A stretch of DNA of 64,000 nucleotides from an uncultured Candidatus Saccharibacteria bacterium (GCA_964496905.1 CAZCAQ010000003.1:1701-65700), one strand, 5' to 3'; positions 16,498 to 60,580 are shown, counted from the first letter of the stretch. Notes: generated from the sequence alone by a model not told the origin. Numbers and translations are program-made.

Positions 16498-17438
16498 AAA
16501 ATATACCAAAAGTACTTTTGAGAGTATTCTTAAGCTTATTTTTTGTATACTTAACTTTTGCAACAAGTGATATAAGTTTTGATGAAGTTTCCAAGATTAT
16601 AAAATCGGCAAGTACTTGGTATTTTCCACTTATTTTACTTTTAATAGTTTTAAATTATGCCGTTAGTACCCATAGATGGAAGGATTTAGTTCTTGTTGAA
16701 GAAAGCCAAAAGCCCAAGTACTCGAGTTTTTTAAGCCTCTATTTTATTGGTTCTTTTTTTAATAATTTTTTGGTTACATCAATTGGCGGCGACGCATACA
16801 AAATTTATAAGCTTGGTAAAAGAATAAACGATACACCCAAGGCATTTGCCGCGACTTTTATGGATAGGTTTACAGGTTTTTTGGTTTTGATCGCTGTATC
16901 TTATTTTGGATTTTTGTTCACCTGGGAAATGTGGTTTGATTTTGTTAACTCTTTTTTAAACAATCACACTGCAACTTATGCTGTACTAGGCTTAAGTTTA
17001 TTTGGTTTTTGGATATGTACAGGTATATTCTTTCTTTCGCTTAAAGTTTTGGCCAAAAAAGTAAAATCTGCTCAAAAGTTACTTAATGTATTAAGCTTAT
17101 ACAAAAGCTATAAAAATAAAATTGTCATGGCTTTACTTACTTCTTTATTAGTTCAGATTTTAGCCATATTTAGCCAGTATTTTGTGTTTTCAAGCTTAGG
17201 ATACACTATACCTCTTGGGTTTACACTCTTTGTAATTCCAGTTATTACACTAGCTGGCTTTTTTATTCCTTCTATAAATGGAATTGGCGTACAAGACTAC
17301 ATGTATAAAGAGCTTTTTTTGCTTGTTGGAATTCCACCATTAATTTCTTTAAGTGCCTCAATTTTGTACCACTTCTTAAGATTAACAGTAAGTTTGATTG
17401 GAGGGCTATTATATGCAATGGGTAAAGCAGATAGTTAA
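16494..17438 (+). CDS. Flippase-like membrane protein (UPF0104 / lysyl-PG-synthase TM-region family)
   Basis: 314 aa with about 8 TM helices and a central GGD/AYK-containing loop (IGGDAYKIYK). Proteins of this family commonly partner with GT2 enzymes. Confidence 0.4.
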   Translation: MKNIPKVLLRVFLSLFFVYLTFATSDISFDEVSKIIKSASTWYFPLILLLIVLNYAVSTHRWKDLVLVEESQKPKYSSFLSLYFIGSFFNNFLVTSIGGDAYKIYKLGKRINDTPKAFAATFMDRFTGFLVLIAVSYFGFLFTWEMWFDFVNSFLNNHTATYAVLGLSLFGFWICTGIFFLSLKVLAKKVKSAQKLLNVLSLYKSYKNKIVMALLTSLLVQILAIFSQYFVFSSLGYTIPLGFTLFVIPVITLAGFFIPSINGIGVQDYMYKELFLLVGIPPLISLSASILYHFLRLTVSLIGGLLYAMGKADS

Positions 17439-19089
17439 CAAGTTATTATCCAATCAGAATTTAAAAAAGGTCATAGCGGTTGTATTTTTTGTTGTCATTT
17501 ATGTCTTAGTACATTTTTCATATTTAGGTACAAATGAGCTTAACCCAGATGCCGTCAACTGGCACAAGAGGTCTGAACAATTTGTATTGGCGTTTAAAAC
17601 TAAAGACTTTATAAAAACTAACCAACATTATCACCCAGGAGTCACATTAATGTGGATAATAGGGCCATCGGTAGAACTGGTAAAACAATTTACCAATGCT
17701 GGTGTTATTTATAGTTCCGAAAACTATCAGATTTTTCATTTTGTGTCCAAAACGGCTCTAATGCTTGTAAATTTAGTTCTCTCGTTAGTATTAATGTACT
17801 TTTTGCGCAAGATAATTGGTTTTTGGAAATCATTTGCAGTGGTTTTTTTAATGAATATCGAACCGTTTTTTTTGGGAAATTCTCGCATTTTGCACATGGA
17901 TATTCTATTTTCAAGCTTAGTAGCTGTTTGCTTAACTCTAGCGTTTTATGCTTTTAAAAGCCTAAAGTTAAGATTTTTTGCTTTAAGCGGTTTTTTTGCC
18001 GCGCTTACAGTTTTAACACGAAGTGTTGGAATTGGCATAATTTTATACAATCTGGTTTTTTTTGTTTATACAGCAATAATTACAAAAAGTAGAAAATTAA
18101 TAGCTTTAAGCGGCATTTTTGCATTTTCTGTAGTTTTAACGTGTTTTGCTCTTTTTCCTGCCTTGTGGGTTAAACCTATAAAAACGGTTGATAAAATATT
18201 TTCACGCAGTTATCAGGTTGGCGTTGAGTACGGACACAATCAAATTTTTATGAACCAATACACCGAAGATCCAGGGCTCATGTTTTACTTGGCTGCAATA
18301 ACTCTTAAATCCTCACCTTTTGTTCTATTTGGAATATTCTTAGCGATAGTATTTGGTGTTATTCATTTGCGTAAAATAAATAAGACAACTTTATGGAGCG
18401 ACACACTTTTGTGCAAGAATATTTTGTCTTTTACATTGTTCTTGTTAATTTTTTACGCTGGCTACTTTTTGATACTAAATACGTCAAACAAAAAAATAGA
18501 CAGATATATTTTGCCACTTTTTTTCTTTTTTAGTTATGTTTCAGTTTGGGGCTATTTTTACTTGTTCAAAGCTTTTGACCATGTTGTAGTTAAATTGTTA
18601 GTTGGGCTGTTTTTTGTTGTTTCGATTATTTATCCAATTTATAGATTCTCGCCGTATGAGTTTTTGTATTATTCTCCACTTTTTAAAAATAGCGAAGTTG
18701 CAAACAATGTAATTTCTCAAAAAAACTTTGGGATTGGAATTTTTCACCTAAAAAAATTTATTGACGCTAGATATGGGTGTTCTTTAACTACACCTAAAAG
18801 TCCCAAAAACTTTCAACCTGTTATATATGGTGGTACATATGTTTGCCCTTCAAACGTGAGTGCTTTAAACATAGGACTTAGCGATACAAAAGCCATGAAG
18901 GAATTGCATGGTAATTCACGTACAACAGATTTTAGGTTTAACAGTCCATCAATGTATGACGTCTTGGTATTATCAATAGACGAAGAAATGCCCAAAGAAG
19001 TAGTAGAGGATAATCTTACATATATTAAAGATTCCTCAATTTTTGTTAACGATGTAGAGTTATGGAGAATCTATGTTAGAAAAGATTAA
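17398..19089 (+). CDS. GT-C membrane glycosyltransferase, first of three tandem PMT/ArnT-like paralogs
   Basis: Multi-TM with the loop motif WHKRSEQF...YHPGVTLMW shared with the 20533 paralog. An alternative ATG lies at 17413. Confidence 0.6.
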   Translation: MEGYYMQWVKQIVNKLLSNQNLKKVIAVVFFVVIYVLVHFSYLGTNELNPDAVNWHKRSEQFVLAFKTKDFIKTNQHYHPGVTLMWIIGPSVELVKQFTNAGVIYSSENYQIFHFVSKTALMLVNLVLSLVLMYFLRKIIGFWKSFAVVFLMNIEPFFLGNSRILHMDILFSSLVAVCLTLAFYAFKSLKLRFFALSGFFAALTVLTRSVGIGIILYNLVFFVYTAIITKSRKLIALSGIFAFSVVLTCFALFPALWVKPIKTVDKIFSRSYQVGVEYGHNQIFMNQYTEDPGLMFYLAAITLKSSPFVLFGIFLAIVFGVIHLRKINKTTLWSDTLLCKNILSFTLFLLIFYAGYFLILNTSNKKIDRYILPLFFFFSYVSVWGYFYLFKAFDHVVVKLLVGLFFVVSIIYPIYRFSPYEFLYYSPLFKNSEVANNVISQKNFGIGIFHLKKFIDARYGCSLTTPKSPKNFQPVIYGGTYVCPSNVSALNIGLSDTKAMKELHGNSRTTDFRFNSPSMYDVLVLSIDEEMPKEVVEDNLTYIKDSSIFVNDVELWRIYVRKD

Positions 19090-20536
19090 ACAAAACAAGA
19101 TTATTCTTGGAATATTATTTGTAGCATTAATTTTGCGCCTTATTGGTTTTTGGCACGGATTTCCATTTGTATTTCACCCAGACGAACCCTCTGTAATTAG
19201 GTCCGCACTTGGTATCCGCTTTGATACGAACCCAGGACACTTTGATTGGCCACATCTTCACTTTTACTTAAACTATTTAGTGTATGTAGTCTTTTTAAAG
19301 TTTAGAGCTTTTTTTGCGCTTTTCCCTTTTTTAGAGTTTTTAAAAGACACAGTTATTTGGCGAGATCCAATTATTTTTTATATGCTAAGCAGAATGTTGA
19401 ACGGCGTTATTGGTGCTCTAACTGTTATTCCAATATATTTAGCAGGAAAAGAAATAGCCGGAAAAAAGGCTGGTTTATTAGCCGCAGCTATTTTTGCAAT
19501 TATGCCATTACATGTACGTGTAAGTCATTTTGCTCTAATTGACGTTCCCGCAGTGTTTTATATGAGTTGGGGAGTCTATTTTTCTTATAGAATATTAAAC
19601 AAAGCTTCATATAAAAATTATATTTTGGCAGGATTATTTTTTGGACTTGCTGCATCTACCAAATACAATGGTTTATTTGGAGCGGTTGTATTGGTTGTTT
19701 CTCACTTCATTTTATCTTACAGATCATTTAACCTTAAAAACTTTATTTTAAGGCCAATTTTTGCCATATTGGCCTGTTTATGTGCTTTTTTGATGGGTAC
19801 ACCATATGCCTTATTTGATTTTGAGACATTTTCTAGAGCAGACACTGCCAAAGGCGCATTATGGCAATTTACAAATGTTGGTAGTGTTTCTTTTGTAAAG
19901 CAAATAGAGCAGTTCTTCACCGAGGCATTTACTTCTATTGCAAAAGGTACTGGTATTACTCCCGTTTTAATTATGCTTGGTTTTATATTTGAAACTGGTC
20001 GAAATATACTGGGCAAAAGAAACATTCAGAATTTTTTGTTAACTGCACTGCCTGCACTTTTAATTATGTTTAATGTTGCGGGGTTTAGTAGGCAACAAAG
20101 TCATTATTATTTAATGGCGTATCCATTTATTGCTTTGGCGTTTGGTGTGTACTTAGCTGGCATAGATTTTAAAAAGTACCAAAAACCCGCCTACCTGATC
20201 ATATTTCTAATTCCACTCCTACTGTCATTACACCAGGTTATAAAGCTCTCAGTGACTGATACAAGAGTTTTAGCATATAAACACATAACAACTTATTTAA
20301 AGCCCGGGACAGTCGTACTTTATAATTCAAACGATTTTAGGCCTTTAGTAGAAAAATTGAAAAAAGACTACCAAACAAAAAAGGTCACGCAATATGTTGA
20401 GAGCAAAAAATATCCTAACGCAGTTTGGTTAGTTAAACTTCCCACATCAGAAATTATTGATCAAGATATTGCAATTCAAAAGTACTCAAATTCAATTAGG
20501 AATGGGCCTCAAGTTTATATATACTTCATACAATGA
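19073..20536 (+). CDS. GT-C glycosyltransferase, PMT_2/ArnT (GT39/83-like) family
   Basis: First periplasmic loop GFWHGFPFVFHPDEPSVIRSAL carries the hallmark DE motif of PMT/ArnT enzymes. About 11 TM helices. Confidence 0.7.
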   Translation: MLEKIKQNKIILGILFVALILRLIGFWHGFPFVFHPDEPSVIRSALGIRFDTNPGHFDWPHLHFYLNYLVYVVFLKFRAFFALFPFLEFLKDTVIWRDPIIFYMLSRMLNGVIGALTVIPIYLAGKEIAGKKAGLLAAAIFAIMPLHVRVSHFALIDVPAVFYMSWGVYFSYRILNKASYKNYILAGLFFGLAASTKYNGLFGAVVLVVSHFILSYRSFNLKNFILRPIFAILACLCAFLMGTPYALFDFETFSRADTAKGALWQFTNVGSVSFVKQIEQFFTEAFTSIAKGTGITPVLIMLGFIFETGRNILGKRNIQNFLLTALPALLIMFNVAGFSRQQSHYYLMAYPFIALAFGVYLAGIDFKKYQKPAYLIIFLIPLLLSLHQVIKLSVTDTRVLAYKHITTYLKPGTVVLYNSNDFRPLVEKLKKDYQTKKVTQYVESKKYPNAVWLVKLPTSEIIDQDIAIQKYSNSIRNGPQVYIYFIQ

Positions 20537-22152
20537 TAAAAAAATACAAATATGAACTTTTAATATTCTTGTTTGCCGTTTTAATTAGAATTCCTTATTT
20601 GGGACATGATAGTTTTAACACTGATGTCTGGCGTTGGAAAACACGCACCTACAATTTTAGTAATGGAGTGTTTAGTGGGGATTTTGGCTTAACTTTACAA
20701 AAATATCACCCTGGAGTCACTTTAATGTGGCTTGGATCTGCAGGCATAAAGGTTTACAACTTGTATTACGATACTGTAATAGGTGGCGAGCCCGCCTCTG
20801 ATGATTTAAACACTGTTTTTGGCTTAAATGCCGCTCAAAAATATTTTGTAGTTTTAGCCATTTCGTTTGCGCTTGCATGTTCCTTTTATGTTTTAAGGCG
20901 TCTGTTTGGTTTAAAGTTTGCACTCGTTTCCGTGCTGTTTTTGTTGTTAGAGCCGTTTTACTCGGCTTTAGCACGCGAATATCATTTAGAAGGTCTAATG
21001 TCGACTTTTATGCTTTCTTCGGTTTTACTGGCATTCTACTGGTTTAAAGAAAAAAGCGCTTCTAAATGGGTTTTTGGATTTTCGGCGCTTTTTGCAACTT
21101 TAGCCATTTTAACCAAAGTAACGGCTCTTTTTGTTGTTCCATTTATTTTGATCGCTTACGTGATTTTTACTTATTTTGAGGAAAAAAACTTTTCTGCGAC
21201 TTTTTTAACTGTGTGGAAAAAAAGCCTACTTTGGTTAGCGCTTGTAGCTGTCTTTGTTTTTATGCTGTGGCCAGCTTTGTGGGTTCGGCCCTTAGATGTT
21301 TACGAAGCAGTTTACAACGGAATTTTTGATATTGGCATTGAGGGCGGGCATGCTCAATTTTATTTTGGTAAATATGTGGAAGATCCTGGCTTGTCATTTT
21401 ATTTCGTAGCTCTACTTTTGCGTTCTTCAGTATTTTTGCTTCCTGGGGTAGTGGGCTACTTTTTATGGGCTCGCAAAAAAGCGGATAAAAACGTTCAAAC
21501 TTACGTTTTGTACTTGTTAGCTTTTTCGGTACTTTATTTGCTTCCAATGTTAATATCGTCAAAAAAACTTGATCGTTATATGTTGCCCAGTTTAATTGGC
21601 CTATCACTAATAAGTTCAGTTTTTTATTATTATTTATTGCGCCTAATTAACTGGTCACGTTATATACTAGGCGGACTAGTTGCAGGATGGCTGATGTTTA
21701 TGGTTTATATACATCCTGATTATTTATCGTATTATTCTCCTTTTGGTGGCGGATTAAGCAAAGGTATTTATATTCTTGAGCCAAAATGGTTAATTGGTAC
21801 TCGTAATATTCAAGACTTTTTGCGTACTGATATGGAAAAGAATGGCAAAACTGCCTTTGTTAAAGCGGCTGACTTTAGAAAAATTAAACGCCGTCAAGAA
21901 CTTATGAACAACAAGTTGGTTGTAGCCCTGCCAGAAAAGTATTTTACACAGGCATATCCTTTTGTTGATGAAGTAGGCGCGTGGGCAGTAGTTGATCAGC
22001 TAGCCGACGATGCTAAATATGCCAATTACTTTATTTATCCAGCGTGGGAAGATGGATCTGACAAAGTAACTAAGCACAAGCTTAAGTATCACGATGCTAT
22101 TTATATTCGTGGCGTTCCTGCATACAAGATTTATGAGAGGGTTGGGGATTAA
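20533..22152 (+). CDS. GT-C membrane glycosyltransferase, paralog of 17398
   Basis: Loop WRWKTRTYNF...YHPGVTLMW and an overall architecture parallel to 17398..19089. Confidence 0.6.
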   Translation: MIKKYKYELLIFLFAVLIRIPYLGHDSFNTDVWRWKTRTYNFSNGVFSGDFGLTLQKYHPGVTLMWLGSAGIKVYNLYYDTVIGGEPASDDLNTVFGLNAAQKYFVVLAISFALACSFYVLRRLFGLKFALVSVLFLLLEPFYSALAREYHLEGLMSTFMLSSVLLAFYWFKEKSASKWVFGFSALFATLAILTKVTALFVVPFILIAYVIFTYFEEKNFSATFLTVWKKSLLWLALVAVFVFMLWPALWVRPLDVYEAVYNGIFDIGIEGGHAQFYFGKYVEDPGLSFYFVALLLRSSVFLLPGVVGYFLWARKKADKNVQTYVLYLLAFSVLYLLPMLISSKKLDRYMLPSLIGLSLISSVFYYYLLRLINWSRYILGGLVAGWLMFMVYIHPDYLSYYSPFGGGLSKGIYILEPKWLIGTRNIQDFLRTDMEKNGKTAFVKAADFRKIKRRQELMNNKLVVALPEKYFTQAYPFVDEVGAWAVVDQLADDAKYANYFIYPAWEDGSDKVTKHKLKYHDAIYIRGVPAYKIYERVGD

Positions 22153-22205: not shown

Positions 22206-23462
22206 TTGCTTAATACCTTAATTGTTACAGGAGCGCTTTTTGTTGGTTCCTTTTTTTCATACCTTTTACAGTTTTATTTGGGAAGGACGTTGAGTGTTGA
22301 GGGATTTGGTGACTTTACCGTACTTTTATCTGTTGCTGGAATTTTAACGTTTTTTGGCAATGTAATTGGCTATGCCGTTGTTAAAATATATTCTGAGTTA
22401 ACTGCTAAAGCCACTTTTTCAAAGATAAGATGGTTATTTTTTAAAAGCCTTAAGTATTCAGCCTTACTGGGTATTTTTTTGGGGGCTTTATGTATACTTT
22501 TAGCCTCGGTCATAGCAACTGCGCTAAACATTCAATCTAGTCAGACTGTTGTAGCTTTTGGCCTGTATTTAACGCTAGTTTTTGTTCCAATCTATGTAGC
22601 AGTTTATTTTCAAGGAACTTATAGATTTGTCTGGTTTGGTTTTTTTATAGTTTTAAACGCATTTTTACGATTTTTGTTGCCGATAGTATTTATAAAGTTG
22701 GTATCTTCTGACCCTTCATACGTCTTTTTAGGTATTTTACTAAGTCAATTTTTGGTAATACTTATTGGTTATGTGGTTGCTAATAGGGTTGCGCTTAAAA
22801 ATGTACAGTCACAAGCCGACGCGGGTTTACTCAATAATGTTTTTAAAAACAGCATTTTTAATGGGTTAGCTTTGTTTACATTGACGGTTATGATAAGTAT
22901 TGACGTAATTGCTGTTAAGTATTTTTTTGAACCCTATGTTGCAGGGATTTATGCCGGAGTAGTAACACTTGGGAAAATTGTCTTGTTTGGCGCCGGAACT
23001 GTAGCAACGGTAATGTTCCCAAGAGCGGTTTCTGTAAACACTGATTATTATGGATTCATGTCAGTATTTAAAAAATTTGGATTTATTCAAGTAATATTTG
23101 TTATGGGTTCAATACTCATATTTTCATTATTTCCAAGTTTTATTACGCATACACTCTTTGGAGAAAAATTTGTGAGCAGTATACCTTATGTAGCATTTTA
23201 CACAGCTTTTATTAGTTTTTACGTGTTAATAAATTTTGCTATTTTAGCTTTAATAGCTTTGGGTGAAAAAAAGTTCTCTCTTTACATGCCGTTATTTTTA
23301 GTATTTCAGCTTGTGGGTTTTTACCTTTTTCATAAAAGTATCTTTCAAATAATTTGGGTAGATATAGTAAGTATGTTGCTACTTTTTGTTTTTATGTTAT
23401 TTAATATAGTAGTAGTTTTTAAAAGAATGAAAGGTCAGTCCACTTTAAACAATGCTAGTTAG
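22206..23462 (+). CDS. Wzx-like flippase / polysaccharide biosynthesis membrane protein
   Basis: TTG start. 418 aa with about 12 TM helices. Confidence 0.55.
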   Translation: MLNTLIVTGALFVGSFFSYLLQFYLGRTLSVEGFGDFTVLLSVAGILTFFGNVIGYAVVKIYSELTAKATFSKIRWLFFKSLKYSALLGIFLGALCILLASVIATALNIQSSQTVVAFGLYLTLVFVPIYVAVYFQGTYRFVWFGFFIVLNAFLRFLLPIVFIKLVSSDPSYVFLGILLSQFLVILIGYVVANRVALKNVQSQADAGLLNNVFKNSIFNGLALFTLTVMISIDVIAVKYFFEPYVAGIYAGVVTLGKIVLFGAGTVATVMFPRAVSVNTDYYGFMSVFKKFGFIQVIFVMGSILIFSLFPSFITHTLFGEKFVSSIPYVAFYTAFISFYVLINFAILALIALGEKKFSLYMPLFLVFQLVGFYLFHKSIFQIIWVDIVSMLLLFVFMLFNIVVVFKRMKGQSTLNNAS

Positions 23463-24210
23463 TGTAATAGTTCCTGCATATAAACAGGAAAAAACAATTA
23501 AAAAGGATGTTGAGCGCATTTGTGATGTAATGAGCGATATTAGGTTTGATTACGAAGTAATTGTAGTAGTGGACGGTTTTTTAGATAAAACTATGGAAAT
23601 TGCTCAAAAAATTAATAGGCCGCATTTAACCGTTATTGGGTACGAAAAAAATCAAGGTAAGGGCTTTGCTGTTAAATATGGTATGAAAAAATCTAAAGGG
23701 GATTTTGTTGCATTTATAGATGCTGGAATGGAAATAGATCCAAATGGTATCTCAATGATTTTAGAGCACATGCTTTGGTACGAAGCAGATATCATTGTTG
23801 GAAGTAAGCGGCATCCTGCTTCAAAAGTGCATTACCCACCACTTAGAAGATTATATAGCTGGGGATATCATACATTGATCCGCCTACTTTTTAGACTTTC
23901 TATTAAAGACACTCAAACTGGTTTAAAAGTGTATAGAAGAGCAGTTCTTAATTATGTTCTTCCAAAACTAGTAGTTAAAAAATATGCTTTTGATATTGAG
24001 CTTATTGCGGTAGCCAAATACCTTGGATTTGACCGTATTTACGAAGCACCTGTTAAGGTAAGTTTTGACTTTAATTCTGGCAGTCGCTTTACTAAGTTTT
24101 TATTTATGGACCCTCTAATACGCAACATGTTTATTGATACAATTGCAGTGTTTTATCGCATGTATATATTAAAATACTATTTACCAGATAACCTTAAAAA
24201 ATCCAAATGA
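23452..24210 (+). CDS. GT2 glycosyltransferase
   Basis: VSVIVPAYKQEKTI...VVVDGFLDKT...IDAGMEIDP. Confidence 0.75.
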   Translation: MLVSVIVPAYKQEKTIKKDVERICDVMSDIRFDYEVIVVVDGFLDKTMEIAQKINRPHLTVIGYEKNQGKGFAVKYGMKKSKGDFVAFIDAGMEIDPNGISMILEHMLWYEADIIVGSKRHPASKVHYPPLRRLYSWGYHTLIRLLFRLSIKDTQTGLKVYRRAVLNYVLPKLVVKKYAFDIELIAVAKYLGFDRIYEAPVKVSFDFNSGSRFTKFLFMDPLIRNMFIDTIAVFYRMYILKYYLPDNLKKSK

Positions 24211-25223
24211 TAAAATTTAGTATAATAATTCCGGTCCGAACCATAAACGAATTTCTACGTGAAAATATTAGCTACCTAATGAAGTTAGATTATGATGCAT
24301 TTGAGGTAATTATTATTCCTGATAACGAAGAAACATATGATTTTAAAGGTGACGCACGTTTTAGAATCTTAGTGTCTGGCATGATGGGCCCAGGTGAAAA
24401 AAGAAATCTTGGAGCGCATGCAGCAACTGGTGAAATTTTAGCCTTTTTGGATGATGATGCATATCCATCAAAAAATTGGCTAGTTGAGGCCGCAAAAGTA
24501 TTTTCAGAAAGACAAATATATGCCTTGGGTTGCCCTGCTGTAACACCTACTAATGCCAAATTTTTAGAAGAGTGTTCAGGCCTTGTTTTGGAATCGCATT
24601 TAGCCAGTGCTGGTACTTTGTATAGGCATAAACCAAAAAAGGCCCAATTTGTAGATGATTACCCAAGTGTTAACCTGTTTGTAAAAAAAGATGCATTTTT
24701 GGCGGTTGGTGGGTTTATTAAAGAATTTTGGCCCGGTGAAGATACCAAGCTTTGTTTGGACTTAATTGAGAAATTCAATATGGAGATTTATTACGACCCT
24801 AGACCAATTGTTTATCATCATAGGCGGGACTTGTTTAGACCTCATTTAAAGCAAGTTTCACGTTACGGACGTCACCGAGGGCAGTTTGCTCGTATTTTTC
24901 CAAAAAATTCACGCAGACTTTCTTATTTCATACCTTCATTTTTTGTATTGGGTATAATTGTTGGAGCTTTTGCATCATTGATTTCACAGCTTTTGGCAAT
25001 CTTGTACTTTGCTACGCTGTTTTTTTACGGTATGCTACTTTTGGTCACTTTTTTTCAATTAGTCTTTTTGGGAAAAGGTGTAAAGAAAGCTTTATATGTA
25101 TGTGCTGGTATTTTTTTAACGCACATAGTATATGGATTAAATTTTTTAAGAGGGTTTATATTTAAGCCAAAACTGGAATTACGTGCTGTAGATCCAAAAA
25201 CTGGCAATTATACTGGAGGTTGA
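24207..25223 (+). CDS. GT2 glycosyltransferase with C-terminal membrane anchor
   Basis: FSIIIPVRTINEF...DDDAYPSKNW (DxD), then about 4 TM helices at the C-terminus. Confidence 0.75.
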   Translation: MIKFSIIIPVRTINEFLRENISYLMKLDYDAFEVIIIPDNEETYDFKGDARFRILVSGMMGPGEKRNLGAHAATGEILAFLDDDAYPSKNWLVEAAKVFSERQIYALGCPAVTPTNAKFLEECSGLVLESHLASAGTLYRHKPKKAQFVDDYPSVNLFVKKDAFLAVGGFIKEFWPGEDTKLCLDLIEKFNMEIYYDPRPIVYHHRRDLFRPHLKQVSRYGRHRGQFARIFPKNSRRLSYFIPSFFVLGIIVGAFASLISQLLAILYFATLFFYGMLLLVTFFQLVFLGKGVKKALYVCAGIFLTHIVYGLNFLRGFIFKPKLELRAVDPKTGNYTGG

Positions 25224-25224: not shown

Positions 25225-25482
25225 ATGAAGGGACAAAATGAATTTGCAACACAGCCTGGTGCAAAGGTAAAAATAAAAGTAATCAATGAATTATGTATAA
25301 GTGCAGGTATTTGCATTATTAGGGCTCCTGAAACTTTTGATTTGGATGATGATGGTATTGCCTATTTAAAAGAAGGTACATGGGATGAAGCAGTGGATAT
25401 AATTGAAGCAGCTAAAGCATGTCCAACGACGGCTATTATCGTAGAGGATTTAAACGGGAATCAGCTTTACCCAGCTGTTTAA
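25225..25482 (+). CDS. Small single-cluster ferredoxin (3Fe-4S/4Fe-4S type)
   Basis: Cys pattern C-x5-C ... C-P (CISAGIC ... ACPTTAI) in an 85-aa acidic protein. Confidence 0.7.
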   Translation: MKGQNEFATQPGAKVKIKVINELCISAGICIIRAPETFDLDDDGIAYLKEGTWDEAVDIIEAAKACPTTAIIVEDLNGNQLYPAV

Positions 25483-25546
25483 AAATCATATCTATATGCA
25501 TCTATTAATTACTTGTTTCAACTTTCATATTTGATATACTTTAAAC

Positions 25547-27238
25547 ATGGCTTATAAAATCGCAGTAGGTTACCCGCCTATTGAATCTGCAAAAGGCGTA
25601 CCGCTACTGTCCCAAAACAGGCAATTTCAATACTTTAACGCTCCAACATACATTTATCCTATGGTACCTGCATATGCGGCTAGCATGGCTCAAAGCAAAG
25701 GTTATGAAGTCATTTGGATGGATGGTATTGCAGAAAAGCAATCATATGACGTTTGGCTTTCAGAACTTATGCAAGAAGCTCCAAACTTGCTTATGATTGA
25801 AACAAAATCACCCGTTGTACGCCAACATTGGGCAATCATAGACGACATAAAAAAGAATTGTCCAAACACGCAAGTAATTTTAGTAGGTGATCAAGTAACT
25901 TTTAAACCTCAAGAATCCATGGATAATTGCTCTGTAGATTATATTATTACAGGCGGCGATTATGATTTTATGCTTACTGAACTGGCTGATTCTATTACAA
26001 AAGGTGTAGAGCTCGTTGGCGGTATTTGGGGACGTAAAAACAACACCAATTTTAAATTTTCAGAATTAATGCGTTGGAAGGATTCAGATGTTAATGGTAA
26101 AGAAGCTTACTGGCTCAGTGGACCGCTTGTTCAAAAGCATGATTTAGATACTTTACCTTTTGTAGACCGTGACTTAACCAAGTGGGAACTTTACGCATAT
26201 GCCAATGGTAATTACAAATATACACCTGCAACTTACATGTATTCTGGAAAGGATTGTTGGTATAACAGATGCACTTTTTGTGTTTGGGATCACACAATTA
26301 ATCCTTTAGGAACTTACCGTCGTTTCTCACCAGAAAGGCTTTTTGCCGAAGTAAAACACGTTGTCGACAATTATGGCGTAAAAGAGATTTTTGATGACGC
26401 TGGGACATTATTTATTGGTCCTCCTTTAAAAAAATTCTGCAATTTGCTTATTGAGTCTGGTTACAACAAAAAAGTAGTTTTTGGGTGCAATATGCGCCTT
26501 AATGCCTTAACTCAAGAATATTATGACTTAATGGGTAAAGCTAACTTCCGCTTTATTTTGTACGGTATGGAATCTGCAAATCAATATACCTTGGACATGC
26601 TAGATAAAGGTATGAAAGTCCACCAAATAGAAGAAGGCGTAAGAATGGCCAAAAAAGCAGGGCTTGAGCCCCATTTAACCATTATGCTTGGTTATCCATG
26701 GGAAAGTGAAGCCGATGCCCGAAATACTATTGCACTCTCCAAGATGCTCTTTAAAAAAGGCTATGTAGATACTATGCAGGGCACAATAGTAATTCCATAT
26801 CCTGGAACGCCCTTGTACCAACAGTGCATTGATAACGATTGGTTAACAGTTGATCCACTAGATTATGAAGCCTTTGATATGCGCAGACCAGTCATGAAAG
26901 TTCCTTTTGAAGAACAAAAGCTTTACGACATGATGCAAGAACTTTATTCGTCATTTTTTACTCCTCAATATTTTATGCGCAAAATGCTTTCGATAAGAAA
27001 ATGGGACGATATTAAGTTTTTTTGGTTTTCGGGCAAAAAGCTTATTGGACACTTGCTAGACTTTGACAGTGGCCAAACAAACATAAGTGTTACATCAGTG
27101 GAATTTTGGAAAAACGCAACAAAAAGCATGGTAACCCACTTAAGACCTAAAAAAGAAGATGAAATTATTAAAGAAAATGTTAAGACCAGCGCTGAAGTCG
27201 AGGTAGCTGCACGTAAAACTCTTTCTGAAAAATTATAG
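25547..27238 (+). CDS. B12 (cobalamin)-binding-domain radical SAM enzyme
   Basis: N-terminal Rossmann-like B12-binding domain (VILVGDQVTF...ITGGDYDF). Radical-SAM cysteine triad around DCWYNRCTFCVW, with C-x4-C-x2-C spacing rather than the canonical C-x3-C-x2-C. 563 aa. Confidence 0.7.
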   Translation: MAYKIAVGYPPIESAKGVPLLSQNRQFQYFNAPTYIYPMVPAYAASMAQSKGYEVIWMDGIAEKQSYDVWLSELMQEAPNLLMIETKSPVVRQHWAIIDDIKKNCPNTQVILVGDQVTFKPQESMDNCSVDYIITGGDYDFMLTELADSITKGVELVGGIWGRKNNTNFKFSELMRWKDSDVNGKEAYWLSGPLVQKHDLDTLPFVDRDLTKWELYAYANGNYKYTPATYMYSGKDCWYNRCTFCVWDHTINPLGTYRRFSPERLFAEVKHVVDNYGVKEIFDDAGTLFIGPPLKKFCNLLIESGYNKKVVFGCNMRLNALTQEYYDLMGKANFRFILYGMESANQYTLDMLDKGMKVHQIEEGVRMAKKAGLEPHLTIMLGYPWESEADARNTIALSKMLFKKGYVDTMQGTIVIPYPGTPLYQQCIDNDWLTVDPLDYEAFDMRRPVMKVPFEEQKLYDMMQELYSSFFTPQYFMRKMLSIRKWDDIKFFWFSGKKLIGHLLDFDSGQTNISVTSVEFWKNATKSMVTHLRPKKEDEIIKENVKTSAEVEVAARKTLSEKL

Positions 27239-27289
27239 ACAGTGTAAATATCCAAAAACCCCAAAGTTTTATGATAATATCATTCTGCA

Positions 27290-28300
27290 ATGCAAAGTGT
27301 TTCTTTTTTAATACCAACTCTTAATTCAGCGTCAGTGCTAGATGCTTGTCTAGCATCTATTGCAGCACAAGACTACCCAAAAGAACAAATCGAAATAGTG
27401 ATTGCAGATGGAGGTTCTACAGACGCAACGCTTGAAATTGCAAAGAAGTTTAATGCAAAAATTGTTAAAAACAGTTTAAAAACTGGTGAAGCTGGAAAAG
27501 CAGTTGCGCTTAATGCTTCAACAGGAGAATTAGTCGCGTTTGTAGATTCCGATAATATTTTACCTAACCCAAACTGGCTAAAGGAAATGACTTTGCCCCT
27601 TAGTAGACACTTGGACGCAATTGGAAGCGAGCCTTGGGCATATACCTGGCGTAAGCAAGATGCATTTATAACTAGATATTGTGCGTTAATTGGAATGAAT
27701 GACCCAATAGTACATTTTTTTGGGAATTATGATCGCTTAAACTTACTTACAAATAAATGGACCGAAGTACCACATGAGGAACAAGACATGGGGGAATATT
27801 TATTAGTTACTTTTGACAAAAGAGGAATTCCGACAATTGGTGCAAATGGTACAGTATTTAGGGCGGATATTCTAAAAAAATATGCAAAATCAGATTATTT
27901 GTTTGATATTGATATCTTAGCAACAATATTGGCTGAGACAGGTTCTATTAACTTTATTAAAACAAAAAATGGCATAATTCACACTTTTTGCGAAAGTGAT
28001 GTATCTAAATTTGCACGAAAGCAAAAACGCAGAGTTCTTGATTATACTCATCACGTAAAAGCTGGTAATCGAAATTACGATTGGAAGTTTAAATCACATG
28101 CTATACCCATGTTTATTTTATACTGTATAACTGTATTACCTTTAATTTTTCAAGCGACCAAGGGTTATTTAAAAAAAGCTGATCGAGCTTGGTTTTTTCA
28201 TATATTGGCTTGTGAAATTACACTTTGGGAATATGGCGTTGGCATTTTAAAAAGTAGTGTCAAACGCGCAGAATTTGACAGGTCAAAATGGAAACAATAG
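27290..28300 (+). CDS. GT2 glycosyltransferase
   Basis: VSFLIPTLNSASVL...IADGGSTDAT...VDSDN. Confidence 0.75.
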   Translation: MQSVSFLIPTLNSASVLDACLASIAAQDYPKEQIEIVIADGGSTDATLEIAKKFNAKIVKNSLKTGEAGKAVALNASTGELVAFVDSDNILPNPNWLKEMTLPLSRHLDAIGSEPWAYTWRKQDAFITRYCALIGMNDPIVHFFGNYDRLNLLTNKWTEVPHEEQDMGEYLLVTFDKRGIPTIGANGTVFRADILKKYAKSDYLFDIDILATILAETGSINFIKTKNGIIHTFCESDVSKFARKQKRRVLDYTHHVKAGNRNYDWKFKSHAIPMFILYCITVLPLIFQATKGYLKKADRAWFFHILACEITLWEYGVGILKSSVKRAEFDRSKWKQ

Positions 28301-28312
28301 GCTTTTAGTACA

Positions 28313-29470
28313 ATGAAAAATAATCGACCACATTTGCTCTTAATTTGTCCATTCGCCTCGCCCAATATTGGTGGAGTTGAATCTCACCTTGATAAATTGA
28401 TCAAATATGCACTATCAAATAATTTTTATGTAACGCTTTTAACTTATCAACCATTAACACGGCGTATTAAAGCCCCTAAAGAAGAACATAGCGAAAATCT
28501 AGAGATTTATCGCATCTCTTGGTTTGGTATAGGTCTATTTCCAAAAATTGAGAACTATTTTCCGTTAGTTTTTATATATTTATTTCCAGGATTGTTTATT
28601 GGAGCGTTACACTATTTATTAAAAAATCATAAATCTGTAGATGTAATTCATGCTCATGGGTTAGTTGCTGCGTGTATTACTAAGTTGTGTAACTTTTTCT
28701 TTAAAAAAAGAACAATTGTAAGTACACATGCGGTATATAGTTTTGAAAACCGGGCGTTGCTCTCAATACTTACTAAATGGATATTAATTAGTTTTGATGT
28801 AATTCTTGCTGTCTCTAAAGTTTCGCGCCAAGAATTAATACGAATGGGTTTGTTCGAAACTAAAATAAAAGTGCATCCTAACTGGATTGATACCACAGTT
28901 TTTAGTCCTGAAGCAACTAAACCTACACAAATGCCAAAAAGTTTTAATGTCCTTTTTGTGGGAAGATTGCTTGAAAAAAAGGGTATTTTGCTTTTTTTGG
29001 AAGCAGCTAAAAAAATGCCTAGTGTAGGATTTCATATAGTAGGAGACGGACCTGAGCTTCAAGCCGTAACTGAAGCAAAAACGGCCTGCAGTAATATCTA
29101 TTACTATGGAGTTCTAATGCAGTCAGATCAACAGCAGTTAGCAGATTTAGTGTCACTTTATGCCAATTGTGACTATTTAATTTCGCCGTATACTTATGAT
29201 GAGGGTTTTTCCACAACGCTAATTGAAGCACTTGCGTGTGGTACACCCTTAATTATTACGGACAGAGGATCTCCGCCAACCTTTATCACTAATAAAGTAG
29301 CTCATTTTTTACCAGCGAACTTCACACTCCATGATTTAGTCAAAATAATAGAACAAGTAGCTACTTTTCCAAAAAAGGAGCTTAGTAAAGCCTGCAGAAA
29401 TTACAGTATTAACAACTTTGGATTTAAAAATGCAGATATAATACTGGAAAGCTACTCTCAAAAGAGTTAA
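28313..29470 (+). CDS. GT4-family glycosyltransferase
   Basis: EGFSTTLIEALACGTPLIITDRGS. Confidence 0.75.
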   Translation: MKNNRPHLLLICPFASPNIGGVESHLDKLIKYALSNNFYVTLLTYQPLTRRIKAPKEEHSENLEIYRISWFGIGLFPKIENYFPLVFIYLFPGLFIGALHYLLKNHKSVDVIHAHGLVAACITKLCNFFFKKRTIVSTHAVYSFENRALLSILTKWILISFDVILAVSKVSRQELIRMGLFETKIKVHPNWIDTTVFSPEATKPTQMPKSFNVLFVGRLLEKKGILLFLEAAKKMPSVGFHIVGDGPELQAVTEAKTACSNIYYYGVLMQSDQQQLADLVSLYANCDYLISPYTYDEGFSTTLIEALACGTPLIITDRGSPPTFITNKVAHFLPANFTLHDLVKIIEQVATFPKKELSKACRNYSINNFGFKNADIILESYSQKS

Positions 29471-29479
29471 TATTCATCA

Positions 29480-30382
29480 ATGGCCTTAACACAAAATCAG
29501 CAAGAAAAATTACAAAAAATTCTAAGCAAAACCGGCGACCTGAATTTTAAAAGACGTGTTTTAACAATGCTTGACTATTTAGATATTCAAACTGGTGACA
29601 AAATTTTAGATATGGGTTGTGGCGAAGGTTTTTACAGTATGATTTTTGACCAGCTATATGATTGTCAAGTCATAGCGGTAGACTATGACGACGCAATAAT
29701 GGGCATGGCCAAAGAATGGTTAAAAGGCAGCACCAAAGTAACTTTTGAATTGGGGGATATTTGCAATCTTAGGTTTCCAAATGACTATTTTGACAAAATT
29801 ATTTGTACAGAAGTCTTAGAGCACATTACTGATCACAAAAAAGCAACAAGTGAACTTTATAGGGTTTTAAAACCATCAGGGAAACTGGCCGTGACTGTGC
29901 CAAACAAAAATTACCCATTTATGTGGGACCCCATAAACAAAGTTCGTGAAGGTTTGGGTTTAGGCCATTTTAACCCTTTAAACGGCTTTTGGGGTGGCAT
30001 TTGGGCATATGATCATAAAAGGCTATATTTGCCTCAAGATTTAAAAGAACTATTAGAAAGCGAAAAGTTTACTGTAGAGAAGCTACAAGTTTTAACTCAT
30101 TATGGAGTTCCGTTTAATCATCTTGTTTTATACACAGGTAAAAATATGTATACAAAAATGCCTGTTCCAGATGAAGTAAAAGAAAATATGGAAAAATTTA
30201 ATTGGTCGCAAGAACAAAGCTCTAATGCTAAAGCTAAATCAAGCTTTCTTGGTACTATTATGGTTAAAGCAATAGCCGTAGCTTTTTCAATTATGAAAAA
30301 AGTTGATGCACACAATAATCAGGATTTTCCTCTTGATAAATCAACCATGGCTGTAGCTGCACTTGCCGTAAAGAAGATGTAA
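29480..30382 (+). CDS. Class I SAM-dependent methyltransferase (1 of 3 tandem)
   Basis: ILDMGCGEGF motif I. Hydrophobic C-terminal tail. Confidence 0.75.
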   Translation: MALTQNQQEKLQKILSKTGDLNFKRRVLTMLDYLDIQTGDKILDMGCGEGFYSMIFDQLYDCQVIAVDYDDAIMGMAKEWLKGSTKVTFELGDICNLRFPNDYFDKIICTEVLEHITDHKKATSELYRVLKPSGKLAVTVPNKNYPFMWDPINKVREGLGLGHFNPLNGFWGGIWAYDHKRLYLPQDLKELLESEKFTVEKLQVLTHYGVPFNHLVLYTGKNMYTKMPVPDEVKENMEKFNWSQEQSSNAKAKSSFLGTIMVKAIAVAFSIMKKVDAHNNQDFPLDKSTMAVAALAVKKM

Positions 30383-30383
30383 A

Positions 30384-31016
30384 ATGGATTACAAAACTGA
30401 CTATAAATTCGGCACACTTATTTCTCCCGTATTTACTACAACACTAAATAGGCTCTGTTTTAATAAAAAAGTTTTGGATGTTGGATGCGGTACAGGTGAT
30501 TATATACAATTTTTCGGTAAAGACTCGCTAGGCCTAGATATTTCTCCCGAAAATATTGCAGAAGCAAAAAAAAGAGATCTAAATGTTAAAAGTTTTGACT
30601 TTAACTCGCCTACAAATCTTGATGAAAAATTTGACGTTGCATTTTGTTCACAAGTATTGGAGCATGTTGAATCGCCAATCGCCCTATTAAGGTTTATATA
30701 TAGTTCCTTAAATGAAAATGGTAGCTTACTAATTTCAGTACCAAATGAGCAAAGCATAATTCACCTAAAGTATCCTTATTTTACAAAAAACGGCAATCAT
30801 CTGTATAGTTTTTCGGTAAACAACTTAAAAGAATTATTACTTGTTGCAGGATTTGTACCCACAGAAGTAATTTATGACTACTACACTATACAAATACGCA
30901 AGTTAAAACTAGATTCAGTACTTTGCTTATTAAACTATTTACCGAGTATACTTAAAAATAGATTGGCATGGTCCTATTGGATTATAGCTACCCGATCGCC
31001 AATTAAAAACAGCTAA
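30384..31016 (+). CDS. Class I SAM-dependent methyltransferase (2 of 3)
   Basis: VLDVGCGTGD motif I; DVAFCSQVLEHV motif. Confidence 0.75.
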   Translation: MDYKTDYKFGTLISPVFTTTLNRLCFNKKVLDVGCGTGDYIQFFGKDSLGLDISPENIAEAKKRDLNVKSFDFNSPTNLDEKFDVAFCSQVLEHVESPIALLRFIYSSLNENGSLLISVPNEQSIIHLKYPYFTKNGNHLYSFSVNNLKELLLVAGFVPTEVIYDYYTIQIRKLKLDSVLCLLNYLPSILKNRLAWSYWIIATRSPIKNS

Positions 31017-31036
31017 AGTTACAATTTAGAAAGGAT

Positions 31037-31786
31037 TTGACAATGATTAGTAAAACAAGATGGAAAGAAGCTCAAGAGTTTGAACTTAATGATTGGAAAA
31101 ATGAGGCTGATATTATGCAAAAAGAGTGGGATGAAGCTTTTAAAAAATTTAACGCTTATTTTGGCGAACTTGAACAAAAGCTTGGCGTTACAGAAAATTG
31201 GAAAATTTTAGATATTGGTTGCAATGTAACATGTGTTTCTCGCATGATAAAAGAAGGCGAACATATTGGCGTTGAACCATTGGCCGATGCACTGGACTTA
31301 AACTCTAAAGTTGAAGGCATAACAATTCATAATGGAATGGGTGAAGATATGCCATTTTTAACTACTGGCTCTATAGACCTTGCCATTTGTAGAAATGTAA
31401 TTGATCATACGCATGTTCCTGAAAAAGTCATAGATGAGGTTGTTCGTGTTTTAAAGCCTGAGGGGTACTTTTTTCTTGCGTGCTATGTTTATAATCCTTT
31501 TATAACTTTTGTAAAAAACTTTGGTGAGGCCGTTAAGATTTTGCGAAATGTGGGACACCCTCACACTTACACAATGGAAACTTTAGAAGATCTTGTTAAT
31601 AAAGACTTTAAAATAATAGATCGAAAAGTTATTTACGAAGGAGTAGATCCAAACGATTTTGGTAAAATTGATGAAAACAAAGGCAATTTATCAGCAATTC
31701 AAAAATCGGTAATGTTTGTAAACGACAAAGTATTGCGGAATAAGTGGTTTGTAAGAGAATACTCCCTACTCTGTCAAAGAATATGA
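31037..31786 (+). CDS. Class I SAM-dependent methyltransferase (3 of 3)
   Basis: ILDIGCNVTC motif I variant; VLKPEGYFF motif III. Confidence 0.6.
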   Translation: MTMISKTRWKEAQEFELNDWKNEADIMQKEWDEAFKKFNAYFGELEQKLGVTENWKILDIGCNVTCVSRMIKEGEHIGVEPLADALDLNSKVEGITIHNGMGEDMPFLTTGSIDLAICRNVIDHTHVPEKVIDEVVRVLKPEGYFFLACYVYNPFITFVKNFGEAVKILRNVGHPHTYTMETLEDLVNKDFKIIDRKVIYEGVDPNDFGKIDENKGNLSAIQKSVMFVNDKVLRNKWFVREYSLLCQRI

Positions 31787-32973
31787 AATCGGTTCTTTTT
31801 TTGTTTGCGCAACTTCTTGATTCTTCAGCAGCCGCAAGTGGCGGAGATGTGCTGAGCAAAAAAATCGTAGATTACATGTCACAAGACTCTGACTTTAAAG
31901 TCGAGCTTATTGTGCCAAAAGTAGCACAAACCAGTTTTTCATTGCAAAATGCTCAAATTTGGCCTATTGGGGAGTCTTACCTTGAAAAGCGGTTTTATAA
32001 TTTTAATAAAATTTGGCAAATTTTGCCTTTGTACGTAGCTAGAGCCGTTGAAGCACTTCAAACAATCAACAAACTTTCGGTAGATATAGTGGTAACAACT
32101 GGAGATTTTTTTTGCAATGTTATTCCAGCTTGGTTTTATAAGGTAAAGCATAGTAATACACAGTGGGTAGCTTATGTTTATCATGTTAATTCAAACCCTT
32201 TTACACGGAAAAACTATTTTTTTCGCAGTCTAGTTTCTTATTGCATACAGCGCATCAGCTTTGTCTTTATTGTAAACAGAGCAGATGTGCTTTTTGTGTT
32301 GAACAAAGCCGTTTTTGATTATTTTAAAAAAAGAGGCTATAAAGGCGAATTAATAATTTCCGGAGCTGGAATCGATGTTGCTGCTATTAGTCTAGAAATT
32401 AAAAATATAGGTCAACAGAAAAAAGAAAATAAAATAGTCTTTTTAGGTCGGGTTAATCCTTCTAAAGGAGTTTTTGATCTTCCAGCCATTATGGAGCAAC
32501 TACTACTTAAAAACCCGGCGCTTAAGCTTGATATAATCGGTACTTCGGATAGTGAAACTAAAGCAAAGCTCGAACAGGCATTTGTCGATAAAAGGTGCCT
32601 TACGAAAGTGACTTTTCACGGTTTTTTGCCTAGACCCGACGTTCTGCGCTTAGTTAGCACTGCGCAGGTATTTACATTTCCGTCATATGAGGAAGGGTGG
32701 GGAATAGTGCTATTTGAGAGTATACTTGCGGGTACAATTCCAGTTGTATACGACTTGCCTGTATTTAAAGAACTATTTGCAGACGCTATAAGCTCGGCAC
32801 CGGTAGGAGATATTCAAGTCTTTTCTACAAAAGTTGATGAGGTATTACTATATGAGTCCTCTACATATGGTAGCAAGCTTGATGATTTAATAAAAATTGT
32901 AGAAAAACACGACATGTTACAAGTATATGAAACACAAAAAAAAGTACTACTTAAACTAAAGTCTAACGCTTAA
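31783..32973 (+). CDS. GT4-family glycosyltransferase
   Basis: EGWGIVLFESILAGTIPVV. The start was moved to the ATG at 31783 (MKSVLFLF), which gives the typical ATGA overlap with the upstream stop. The ORF track begins at a GTG at 31744, inside the previous gene. Confidence 0.7.
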   Translation: MKSVLFLFAQLLDSSAAASGGDVLSKKIVDYMSQDSDFKVELIVPKVAQTSFSLQNAQIWPIGESYLEKRFYNFNKIWQILPLYVARAVEALQTINKLSVDIVVTTGDFFCNVIPAWFYKVKHSNTQWVAYVYHVNSNPFTRKNYFFRSLVSYCIQRISFVFIVNRADVLFVLNKAVFDYFKKRGYKGELIISGAGIDVAAISLEIKNIGQQKKENKIVFLGRVNPSKGVFDLPAIMEQLLLKNPALKLDIIGTSDSETKAKLEQAFVDKRCLTKVTFHGFLPRPDVLRLVSTAQVFTFPSYEEGWGIVLFESILAGTIPVVYDLPVFKELFADAISSAPVGDIQVFSTKVDEVLLYESSTYGSKLDDLIKIVEKHDMLQVYETQKKVLLKLKSNA

Positions 32974-37907: not shown

Positions 37908-37911
37908 ACAT

Positions 37912-54996: not shown

Positions 54997-55016
54997 TTAA
55001 ACCTTGGAGACAATCC

Positions 55017-56402: not shown

Positions 56403-56408
56403 TGGTTT

Positions 56409-56437
56409 TTGACTCAATCAGTGGCCTATAGTATAAT
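56409..56437 (+). promoter_or_regulatory. Near-consensus sigma70 promoter TTGACT-N17-TATAAT
   Basis: Perfect -10 element, 5/6 -35 match, 17-bp spacer. A strong SD (AAGGAGG) lies 5 nt before the 56473 ATG. Confidence 0.5.
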
Positions 56438-56472
56438 TAACGCATTGAAATCTTAAGGCCAAGGAGGAAACA

Positions 56473-56880: not shown

Positions 56881-56899
56881 CCTGTTCAGCTCTTAGTTT

Positions 56900-56922
56900 C
56901 GTTCTCGACATATGTCGAACGA
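56900..56922. promoter_or_regulatory. 14-bp perfect palindrome TCGACATATGTCGA (with flanking CGTTC/GAACG), candidate protein-binding site or weak hairpin
   Basis: Located 25 nt after the stop of the small secreted-protein gene. No U-tract follows. Confidence 0.3.
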
Positions 56923-60568: not shown

Positions 60569-60580
60569 TAATATTTTATT

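Follow-up and report, generated by a model that had tools for sequence, protein, structure and literature searches.

Three-component polyprenyl-phosphate sugar systems consist of a family 2 glycosyltransferase (GT2) such as GtrB/CsbB or ArnC, a flippase and a GT-C glycosyltransferase such as GtrC, YfhO or ArnT. Editing of the sugar on its lipid carrier is established in the Arn (ArnD) and decaprenyl-phosphoarabinose (DprE1/E2) pathways, and we know of no three-component system that uses a radical S-adenosylmethionine (SAM) enzyme. In hopanoid synthesis the glucosamine-to-cyclitol enzyme HpnJ acts after the GT2 HpnI on lipid-bound glucosamine, without methylating it (PMC9204698, PMC13459092). 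Calditol synthase (Cds) also acts after glycosylation of the lipid (PMC9092360), and with Cds and PtmC, both radical SAM enzymes that are proposed to convert a hexose to a cyclopentitol, the radical SAM step is on a lipid-attached sugar (PMC9092360, PMC13459092). The present analysis concerns positions 25225 to 31786 of a 64,000-nucleotide stretch (the window) from an uncultured Candidatus Saccharibacteria bacterium (GCA_964496905.1, CAZCAQ010000003.1:1701-65700), where a ferredoxin gene and the gene for a B12-type radical SAM protein lie within a glycan locus. The window has a candidate counterpart of each part of the three-component systems, and the likeness of its radical SAM step to those of Cds and PtmC would be by analogy only.

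The radical SAM protein is a B12-type, HpnJ-like enzyme in a new conserved genetic setting, and its family has no characterized member. The enzyme and its ferredoxin are genetically locked to membrane-associated GT2s, a flippase and GT-C transferases. The literature search found no paper on this radical SAM family or on a radical SAM step on a polyprenyl-linked sugar.

The radical SAM protein and its nearest families

The radical SAM gene (25547..27238, + strand) encodes a protein of 563 amino acids that scores 56.5 bits against Pfam Radical_SAM (cutoff 29.5). In a search of the curated NCBIfam models at a threshold of E 0.01 or better, the best family is HpnJ (TIGR03471), with 143.1 bits against a cutoff of 577.6 and nearly the whole model aligned, and the second is BchE (TIGR02026), with 77.9 bits against 481. 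Below these come the methylases PhpK (58.7 bits, cutoff 600), MgmA (45.7 bits, cutoff 360) and KedN5 (19 bits, cutoff 700) and rSAM_ocin_1, a C-methyltransferase of ribosomally synthesized and post-translationally modified peptides (RiPP; 45.7 bits, cutoff 282). The "lipid biosynthesis B12-binding/radical SAM" (ladderane) model gives 52 bits and the AprD4 model 38 bits; the HpnR and TsrM models, and curated models for GenK, Fom3 and MoeK5, have no match at that threshold. A genuine HpnJ from a Mycetohabitans megaplasmid, which reaches 843.9 bits on its own model, has the same two-domain layout as the window protein, and the two align colinearly almost from end to end (25% identity, E 4e-33). 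When annotated plasmid proteins are compared, the best matches are a Lawsonia HpnJ-like protein and HpnJ, with BchE far behind, and the plasmid matches overall comprise HpnJ, BchE, a RiPP cluster and glycan loci in Desulfovibrionaceae. Judged by these alignments, the radical SAM protein forms a distinct subfamily beside HpnJ.

The cluster-binding triad, C237-WYNR-C242-TF-C245, is invariant in 31 of 31 aligned homologues, so that the Cx4Cx2C pattern read from the DNA in the first place survives realignment. The same alignment has an invariant FDDAGT (282-287) at the usual SAM-binding position and a long invariant N-terminal motif, LLSQNRQFQ. HpnJ has the canonical Cx3Cx2C spacing (CRSRCTFC), whereas the window protein has Cx4Cx2C; HpnJ-like proteins at 27-30% identity to it are canonical, and relatives at 30-40% identity have Cx3, Cx4 or Cx9-17 before CxxC. 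The spacing had been thought unusual, a view that does not hold within the class, where it is found in OxsB (ring contraction; PMC9204698) and in GenD1 (sugar C-methylation; PMC4340712), both of which act on sugar-type substrates. Since it is shared by a ring contractase and a C-methylase, it is neither unique nor informative on the chemistry.

The AlphaFold2 (AF2) model of the protein (pLDDT 80) has a five-stranded Rossmann-type N-terminal domain followed by the radical SAM barrel, and a structure search with it returns radical SAM structures, in agreement with the partial TIM-barrel fold. The closest solved structure (search scores in brackets) is that of AprD4 (24.6; PDB 6fd2, 14-15% identity), a sugar diol dehydratase, followed by the methylases TsrM (22.3), MgmA (20.8), CysS (19.9) and TokK (16.8) and by OxsB, the ring-contraction enzyme (16.0). 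AprD4, a radical SAM 1,2-diol dehydratase, has canonical cysteine spacing, unlike the window protein, and binds no cobalamin (PMC12931638). The profile of the wider family aligns through the cobalamin domains of OxsB, TsrM, TokK and CysS, and in OxsB through the radical SAM core as well; with AprD4 the radical SAM core alone is aligned, from profile position 177.

The N-terminal Rossmann-type cobalamin-binding domain that marks class B is thus present at the level of fold and of profile. Structures of base-off cobalamin enzymes have a Gly on β4 and a Gly-Glu at the start of α5, and DxHxxG is not required in class B (PMC9204698). In the window protein G114 at the end of β4 is invariant, the wide alignment included, and α5 starts with G137-D138 in place of Gly-Glu; a DxHxxG-like motif, which had been proposed as a check, is absent from all 31 aligned homologues, as expected for the class. 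The Pfam B12-binding model gives the window protein 18.2 bits, below the cutoff of 32.1, and gives close homologues 34-40 bits, above it. AprD4 and ArsL have related folds with no cobalamin bound (PMC12931638), and for this reason a B12-type fold alone is insufficient to show cobalamin binding. By sequence profile and model, then, the protein has the architecture of the B12-type class, which bears out the earlier description at the level of architecture. The annotated genes of the window include none for cobalamin uptake or salvage, in a stretch too small to speak for the genome, and it is plausible that a B12-dependent step would be notable in so streamlined a genome.

The prediction of the sequence-only reading that the enzyme is a GenK/Fom3-like C-methyltransferase, and that the glycan carries C-methylated sugars, is not upheld by these comparisons, in which HpnJ (143 bits) and BchE (78 bits) outscore every methylase model and the closest structure is AprD4. 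Alignment with non-methylating classes, which that reading had itself named as counting against it, is what is found: HpnJ first, then BchE, and the fold of AprD4, which is non-methylating and without cobalamin (PMC12931638).

Database matches to the protein number more than 5,000; the top 120 are full-length proteins with 66-77% identity, and where a source is named it belongs to candidate division WWE3 or to other Patescibacteria. Their database labels either say little ("radical SAM protein", "B12-binding domain-containing") or have been wrongly transferred ("BchE", "YgiQ"), and in a set of 1.8 billion cluster representatives 185 fall below 1e-30. Several homologues of 650-970 amino acids (P0122-P0126, P0239, P0253) carry inteins (Hint plus LAGLIDADG endonuclease) exactly at the cluster cysteines, before the third Cys in P0125 (CTF | intein | CVWD) and before the first in P0123 (GRD | intein | CWW); insertion at these positions is the mark of a strongly constrained site, and the window gene is without an intein. 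Gene fusions were considered as a sign of partnership and rejected, because the long homologues contain inteins or are double radical SAM proteins and none is fused to a glycosyltransferase. All three cluster cysteines are lost in four relatives of full length (P0141, P0145, P0154, P0156; 30-35% identity to the window protein), which may be catalytically dead paralogues.

The conserved cassette and its membrane partners

A scan of species-representative genomes of GTDB shows that at least 447 encode a relative of the radical SAM protein, and 80 loci were compared with the window proteins. Upstream counts are for genes on the strand of the radical SAM gene, in the 62 loci whose upstream sequence reaches 3 kb or more; downstream counts are for the 49 loci with at least 6 kb on that side. 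The loci come from WWE3, Microgenomates, Roizmanbacteria, Collierbacteria, Gottesmanbacteria, Moranbacteria and similar groups, and those at 52-56% radical SAM identity from Chloroflexi, one actinobacterial metagenome-assembled genome (MAG) and one archaeal MAG. The membrane-embedded GT2b (24207..25223, + strand; Pfam GT2 families) accompanies the radical SAM gene most constantly and is present in 57 of the 62 loci; the soluble GT2a (23452..24210, +; Pfam Glycos_transf_2, 86.6 bits) follows with 45, at about 50% identity. The ferredoxin lies upstream in 38 of them, and a flippase-like gene with 12 transmembrane segments in 36, represented in the window by a Wzx/MOP-like flippase candidate (22206..23462, +) with a weak Polysacc_synt match and 12 hydrophobic segments. 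Downstream, GT2c (27290..28300, +; Pfam GT2, one C-terminal hydrophobic segment) is found in 21/49 loci at about 50% identity, which makes it frequent and not universal. These counts define a conserved unit of flippase, GT2a, GT2b, ferredoxin, radical SAM and GT2c, which begins with the flippase. Its best reading is a horizontally shared cassette of envelope-glycan type with the radical SAM gene at its core. In a more distant relative, P0128 (40% identical), a GT2b orthologue directly follows the radical SAM gene (32% identity, E 5e-48).

The ferredoxin (25225..25482, +) has 85 amino acids and matches Pfam Fer4_13, Fer4_15 and Fer4_19, each above cutoff. It has exactly three cysteines, C24-ISAGI-C30 and C66-P, and the CxxAxxC...CP pattern, with Ala at the position of the second Cys, is kept in 44 of 46 ferredoxin homologues. 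This Ala variant is the signature of [3Fe-4S] ferredoxins, as established for those that partner P450 enzymes, and the assignment made from the DNA alone is borne out: by its sequence the ferredoxin is of the [3Fe-4S] single-cluster type. The genes are closely spaced. The stop codon of GT2b (25221-25223) is one base from the ferredoxin ATG (25225), with GGAGG upstream of that ATG, and from this arrangement the two genes are read as translationally coupled. That the ferredoxin adjoins the radical SAM gene is more than chance, because it is upstream and on the same strand in so many of the loci.

Among structures in the PDB, GT2a best matches DPMS (5mlz; 3.8e-13, residues 1-172), then GtrB and ArnC, and the NCBIfam PpgS model aligns with it over profile positions 4-206 of 226. 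On sequence grounds GT2a shows a modest resemblance to polyprenyl-phosphate sugar synthases (DPMS, GtrB, ArnC, PpgS). A hydrophobicity scan finds no transmembrane helices in GT2a, unlike GtrB and DPMS. GT2b has invariant DDD (82-84), GED (177-179), HHRR and QxSRY motifs, and its AF2 model (pLDDT 89.6) has a GT-A domain and three C-terminal membrane helices at 238-318; the top Foldseek matches are the membrane mannosyltransferase PcManGT (6yv7), the cellulose synthase BcsA and hyaluronan synthases. In the radical SAM protein itself no hydrophobic segment is found by the hydrophobicity scan.

Two GT-C genes precede the cassette. The first (19073..20536, +) matches Pfam PMT and PMT_2, has eight hydrophobic segments and is a candidate extracytoplasmic transferase using a polyprenyl-phosphate sugar donor; the second (20533..22152, +) is a GT-C-like membrane protein with a weak PMT_2 match. 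Homologues occur upstream in 17 related loci for the first (~38% identity) and in 17-18 for the second (~42%); the pair is conserved in WWE3 loci, and other loci have a PMT_2-TPR gene nearby. Farther upstream, an LPG_synthase_TM / TIGR00374 flippase-like membrane protein (16494..17438, +; 62 bits against a TIGR00374 cutoff of 43, seven hydrophobic segments) shares its domain with the gene after hpnK in a genuine hpnI-J-K cluster, although the pairwise match of the two proteins is weak (E 4e-4). Genes of all three kinds, a GtrB/DPMS-like GT2, a candidate flippase and a GT-C transferase, are in the locus, with the reservation that the GT2a match is modest (53 bits) and comes without transmembrane helices.

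Like the radical SAM gene of the window, hpnJ keeps company with a GT2 and an LPG_synthase_TM gene. The hpn cluster differs in having no ferredoxin, and the window differs in lacking HpnK and hopanoid genes and in its GT2b, which is unrelated to HpnI. A transplanted HpnI/HpnJ pair was rejected as the origin of these genes: GT2b is unlike HpnI, the HpnJ score is far under its cutoff and the flippase-like proteins match weakly.

The cassette varies among the loci. Six WWE3 loci, of which L006:7100-8032 is an example, have a 310-residue protein without a Pfam match between the ferredoxin and the radical SAM gene, and in twelve loci (L020:11616-12119 and eleven similar ones) a hydrophobic protein of 167 residues, also without a Pfam match, is encoded shortly after the radical SAM gene. 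At L070:11661-12908 and in six similar loci of Collierbacteria type, the next gene downstream of the radical SAM gene encodes an NDP-hexose C-methyltransferase of the conventional kind (Methyltransf_13/14). L019 has two ferredoxin copies upstream, and in L080 the radical SAM gene is in two open reading frames (ORFs), from a frameshift or an assembly error. Distant radical SAM relatives have GT2, GT4, YfhO, PMT_2 and nucleotide-sugar genes as neighbours, and in some loci three further paralogues of B12 type as well. On the metagenome contigs L084 and L085/L086, four B12-type radical SAM paralogues are interleaved with GT2, GT4, YfhO or PMT_2 and nucleotide-sugar genes; one paralogue per locus belongs to the clade of the window protein (339-371 bits) and the others score 50-105 bits. 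HpnJ-like genes are also found in glycan loci on Lawsonia and Solidesulfovibrio plasmids.

Proposed chemistry and competing explanations

The interpretation that we tentatively prefer, at a probability somewhat short of even, is a ferredoxin-supported radical tailoring of a membrane-anchored sugar before export, with an HpnJ-like rearrangement narrowly placed over C-methylation. GT2a, GT2b or both would attach a hexose or hexosamine to an acceptor lipid on the cytoplasmic side of the membrane, and the ferredoxin, presumed to be a dedicated electron carrier for the radical SAM enzyme, would reduce the [4Fe-4S] cluster held by C237, C242 and C245. SAM would then be cleaved to give the 5'-deoxyadenosyl radical, which would abstract a hydrogen from the lipid-bound sugar. 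The resulting sugar radical would be remodelled by a non-methylating rearrangement of the carbon skeleton, of the HpnJ/calditol-synthase type (pyranose to carbocycle), in preference to methyl transfer from methylcobalamin; the edited sugar would be flipped and handed to the PMT_2-type GT-C transferases outside. That the substrate is lipid-linked, the path of the electrons, the chemistry and any use of cobalamin are inferences of ours. The rearrangement is slightly favoured because HpnJ is the nearest curated family, because the enzyme, like HpnJ, comes after a GT2 and because other enzymes supply methylation.

Several points weigh against this interpretation. [3Fe-4S] ferredoxins often do not have a very low potential, so that the role of reductant is an assumption. 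The lipid linkage of the substrate is deduced from the neighbouring genes only; the likeness of GT2a to DPMS is modest (53 bits), and GT2b has no specific similarity to HpnI (E 0.056). The window protein is not an HpnJ orthologue (143 bits against 577.6, 25% identity and another cysteine spacing), and neither an HpnK-like deacetylase nor hopanoid genes (hpnI, squalene-hopene cyclase) are seen among the annotated genes of the window. The chemistry of HpnJ is itself known from a knockout only (PMC9092360, PMC13459092) and was never studied in vitro, similarity networks group the C-methylases Fom3 and MoeK5 with HpnJ (PMC9204698), and the characterized class B enzymes are mostly methylases, from which neither sequence nor structure can separate non-methylases (PMC12931638). 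For these last three reasons the preference for rearrangement over methylation is small.

The strongest competitor, held at a slightly lower probability, is the model of the sequence-only reading, a cobalamin-dependent C-methylase; in this case the ferredoxin would feed both SAM cleavage and the regeneration of cob(I)alamin. It can call on the class B architecture and on a family profile that spans the cobalamin domains of OxsB, TsrM, TokK and CysS, on the invariant G114 of β4 with a Gly-Asp at the Gly-Glu position of α5 (motifs from PMC9204698), on the spacing shared with the sugar C-methylase GenD1 (PMC4340712), on the company that Fom3 and MoeK5 keep with HpnJ (PMC9204698) and on the predominance of methylases among characterized members of the class (PMC12931638). 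Set against it are the curated methylase models, which all lie well under HpnJ and BchE, with HpnR and TsrM unmatched; the non-methylase AprD4 as the closest structure; and a cobalamin binding that is unproven, the Pfam B12-binding score being below cutoff. Related loci with three or four B12-type radical SAM paralogues fit a methylase, as such arrays are typical of serial methylation pathways, whereas in seven related loci the radical SAM gene is already followed at once by an NDP-hexose C-methyltransferase of the conventional kind, and the class I methyltransferases of the window locus are not conserved partners.

The low Pfam B12-binding score, together with the change of Gly-Glu to Gly-Asp, can also be taken as the sign of an AprD4-like, cobalamin-independent enzyme with a vestigial Rossmann domain, which would carry out dehydration, deoxygenation, epimerization or oxidation of the sugar with the ferredoxin as electron donor or sink. 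Hosts of this kind are probably unable to make cobalamin, as had been pointed out from the DNA alone, and a [3Fe-4S] ferredoxin would suit the role of acceptor in an oxidative reaction. Such an enzyme is nevertheless unlikely: the sequence match to AprD4 is confined to the radical SAM core and the N-terminal domain aligns to genuine cobalamin domains, close homologues pass the B12-binding cutoff (34-40 bits), the AprD4 model gives only 38 bits and the cassette has no conserved partner reductase resembling AprD3. Modification of the lipid part, carrier or membrane lipid tail, in the manner of HpnP/HpnR and of ladderane-type and archaeal tetraether radical SAM enzymes, has the 52 bits of the ladderane model, the lipid-modifying members of the class (PMC13459092) and the membrane-protein partners in its favour, but is very improbable, given that the conserved neighbours all handle sugars (GT2s, flippase, GT-C) with no lipid-synthesis genes in the cassette, that the HpnR model is unmatched and that the radical SAM protein is without a hydrophobic segment.

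The preferred rearrangement leads to a broader proposal, which we consider doubtful, that the family makes a carbocyclic or skeleton-rearranged lipid-carried sugar in the HpnJ/calditol-synthase manner outside hopanoid and archaeal lipids, as an envelope component that is widespread and strongly conserved in Patescibacteria, occurs in some Chloroflexi too and is made in a cobalamin-dependent step by organisms unable to make cobalamin. If it is true, envelope synthesis relies on a vitamin from hosts or neighbours, and should the enzyme need cobalamin, the cassette would mark a concrete dependency in nutrition. Conserved enzymes outside the housekeeping set are few in Patescibacteria, and this radical SAM family is strongly conserved, with 65-77% identity across WWE3 and related groups and more than 50% in other phyla. 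Its tie to membrane glycosyltransferases points to an unrecognized radical step in the envelope building of these episymbiotic bacteria. A compact, soluble five-gene cassette with its own ferredoxin also offers a practical entry to this chemistry, HpnJ as the nearest relative having never been studied in vitro.

Methyltransferases and the wider glycan locus

The seven + strand ORFs between 25225 and 31786 agree in their coordinates with the gene calls on a public contig of identical sequence, and with the Pfam matches this confirms the gene identities first assigned (ferredoxin, radical SAM, GT2, GT4 and three class I methyltransferases). GT4a (28313..29470, +; Pfam Glycos_transf_1 and Glyco_transf_4) is followed by three class I SAM methyltransferases, all above cutoff: MT1 (29480..30382, +; Methyltransf_11, 80.7 bits), MT2 (30384..31016, +; Methyltransf_23, 88.6 bits) and MT3 (31043..31786, +; Methyltransf_11, 46.9 bits), whose ORF opens at TTG 31037 and whose gene call begins at ATG 31043. 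GT4b (31783..32973, +; a gene call with Pfam Glycos_transf_1) starts within the end of MT3 (31783 against 31786). Three methyltransferases in a row are therefore present as described, but the synteny counts rule them out as conserved partners of the radical SAM gene: a homologue of at least one of the three occurs in 15/49 loci, mostly at about 30% identity, with MT1 in seven, MT2 in eight and MT3 in one (L077 only). GT4a has a downstream homologue in 5/49 loci, 49% identical in L077. Given the conserved unit and these sparse counts, the methyltransferases and GT4s are lineage-specific accessories, added to the core for tailoring. The Chloroflexi locus L077 repeats nearly the entire window order, including GT4, MT1, MT3 and GT4, and holds a class I methyltransferase in the ferredoxin slot.

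The PDB matches of MT1, MT2 and MT3 are generic, the best for MT1 being PEAMT at 51 bits, and an assignment of substrates from solved structures was dropped because they are generic throughout. MT1 has a C-terminal hydrophobic segment (residues 254-272) and would therefore sit at the membrane; its sequence suggests a membrane-anchored methyltransferase. A reasonable guess is that the glycan is O- or N-methylated, a trait confined to this lineage and a few others. Radical SAM arrays with methyltransferases do recur, in the Lawsonia plasmid and in one metagenome locus. The 27-kb plasmid of Lawsonia intracellularis (L088; NC_008012), a cultured pathogen from an unrelated phylum, has two radical SAM genes, one of them HpnJ-like (376 bits on the HpnJ model), along with GT2s, GalE, five class I methyltransferases and a HAD/GHMP kinase pair, and parallels the window in pairing a radical SAM gene with several methyltransferases.

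All these window genes belong to one co-directional glycan locus that spans about 3.8 kb to 51 kb of the window. A scan of the locus gave no enrichment of promoter-like and terminator-like sites, and tRNA and Rfam scans gave no matches. Four large proteins of the locus, encoded within 32977-39354 and 17398-19089 (1109, 534, 480 and 563 amino acids), are without a Pfam match; of these the 1109-residue and 563-residue proteins were scanned for hydrophobic segments and have nine and eight, respectively. The four may be unrecognized GT-C-like or polymerase proteins. A 968-residue protein (43737-46646) combines Wzy_C (O-antigen ligase/polymerase-like) and PMT/PMT_2 (GT-C) domains in a single polypeptide. 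At the left window edge, on the - strand and outside the co-directional locus, 133-834 and 831-1628 encode an LPG_synthase_C-like protein and a fourth class I methyltransferase. The right end (53593-62601) holds housekeeping and cell-wall genes, namely a class II tRNA synthetase, RelA/SpoT, MraW, a penicillin-binding transpeptidase and a LytR-CpsA-Psr protein, the last of which could attach the glycan to the wall.

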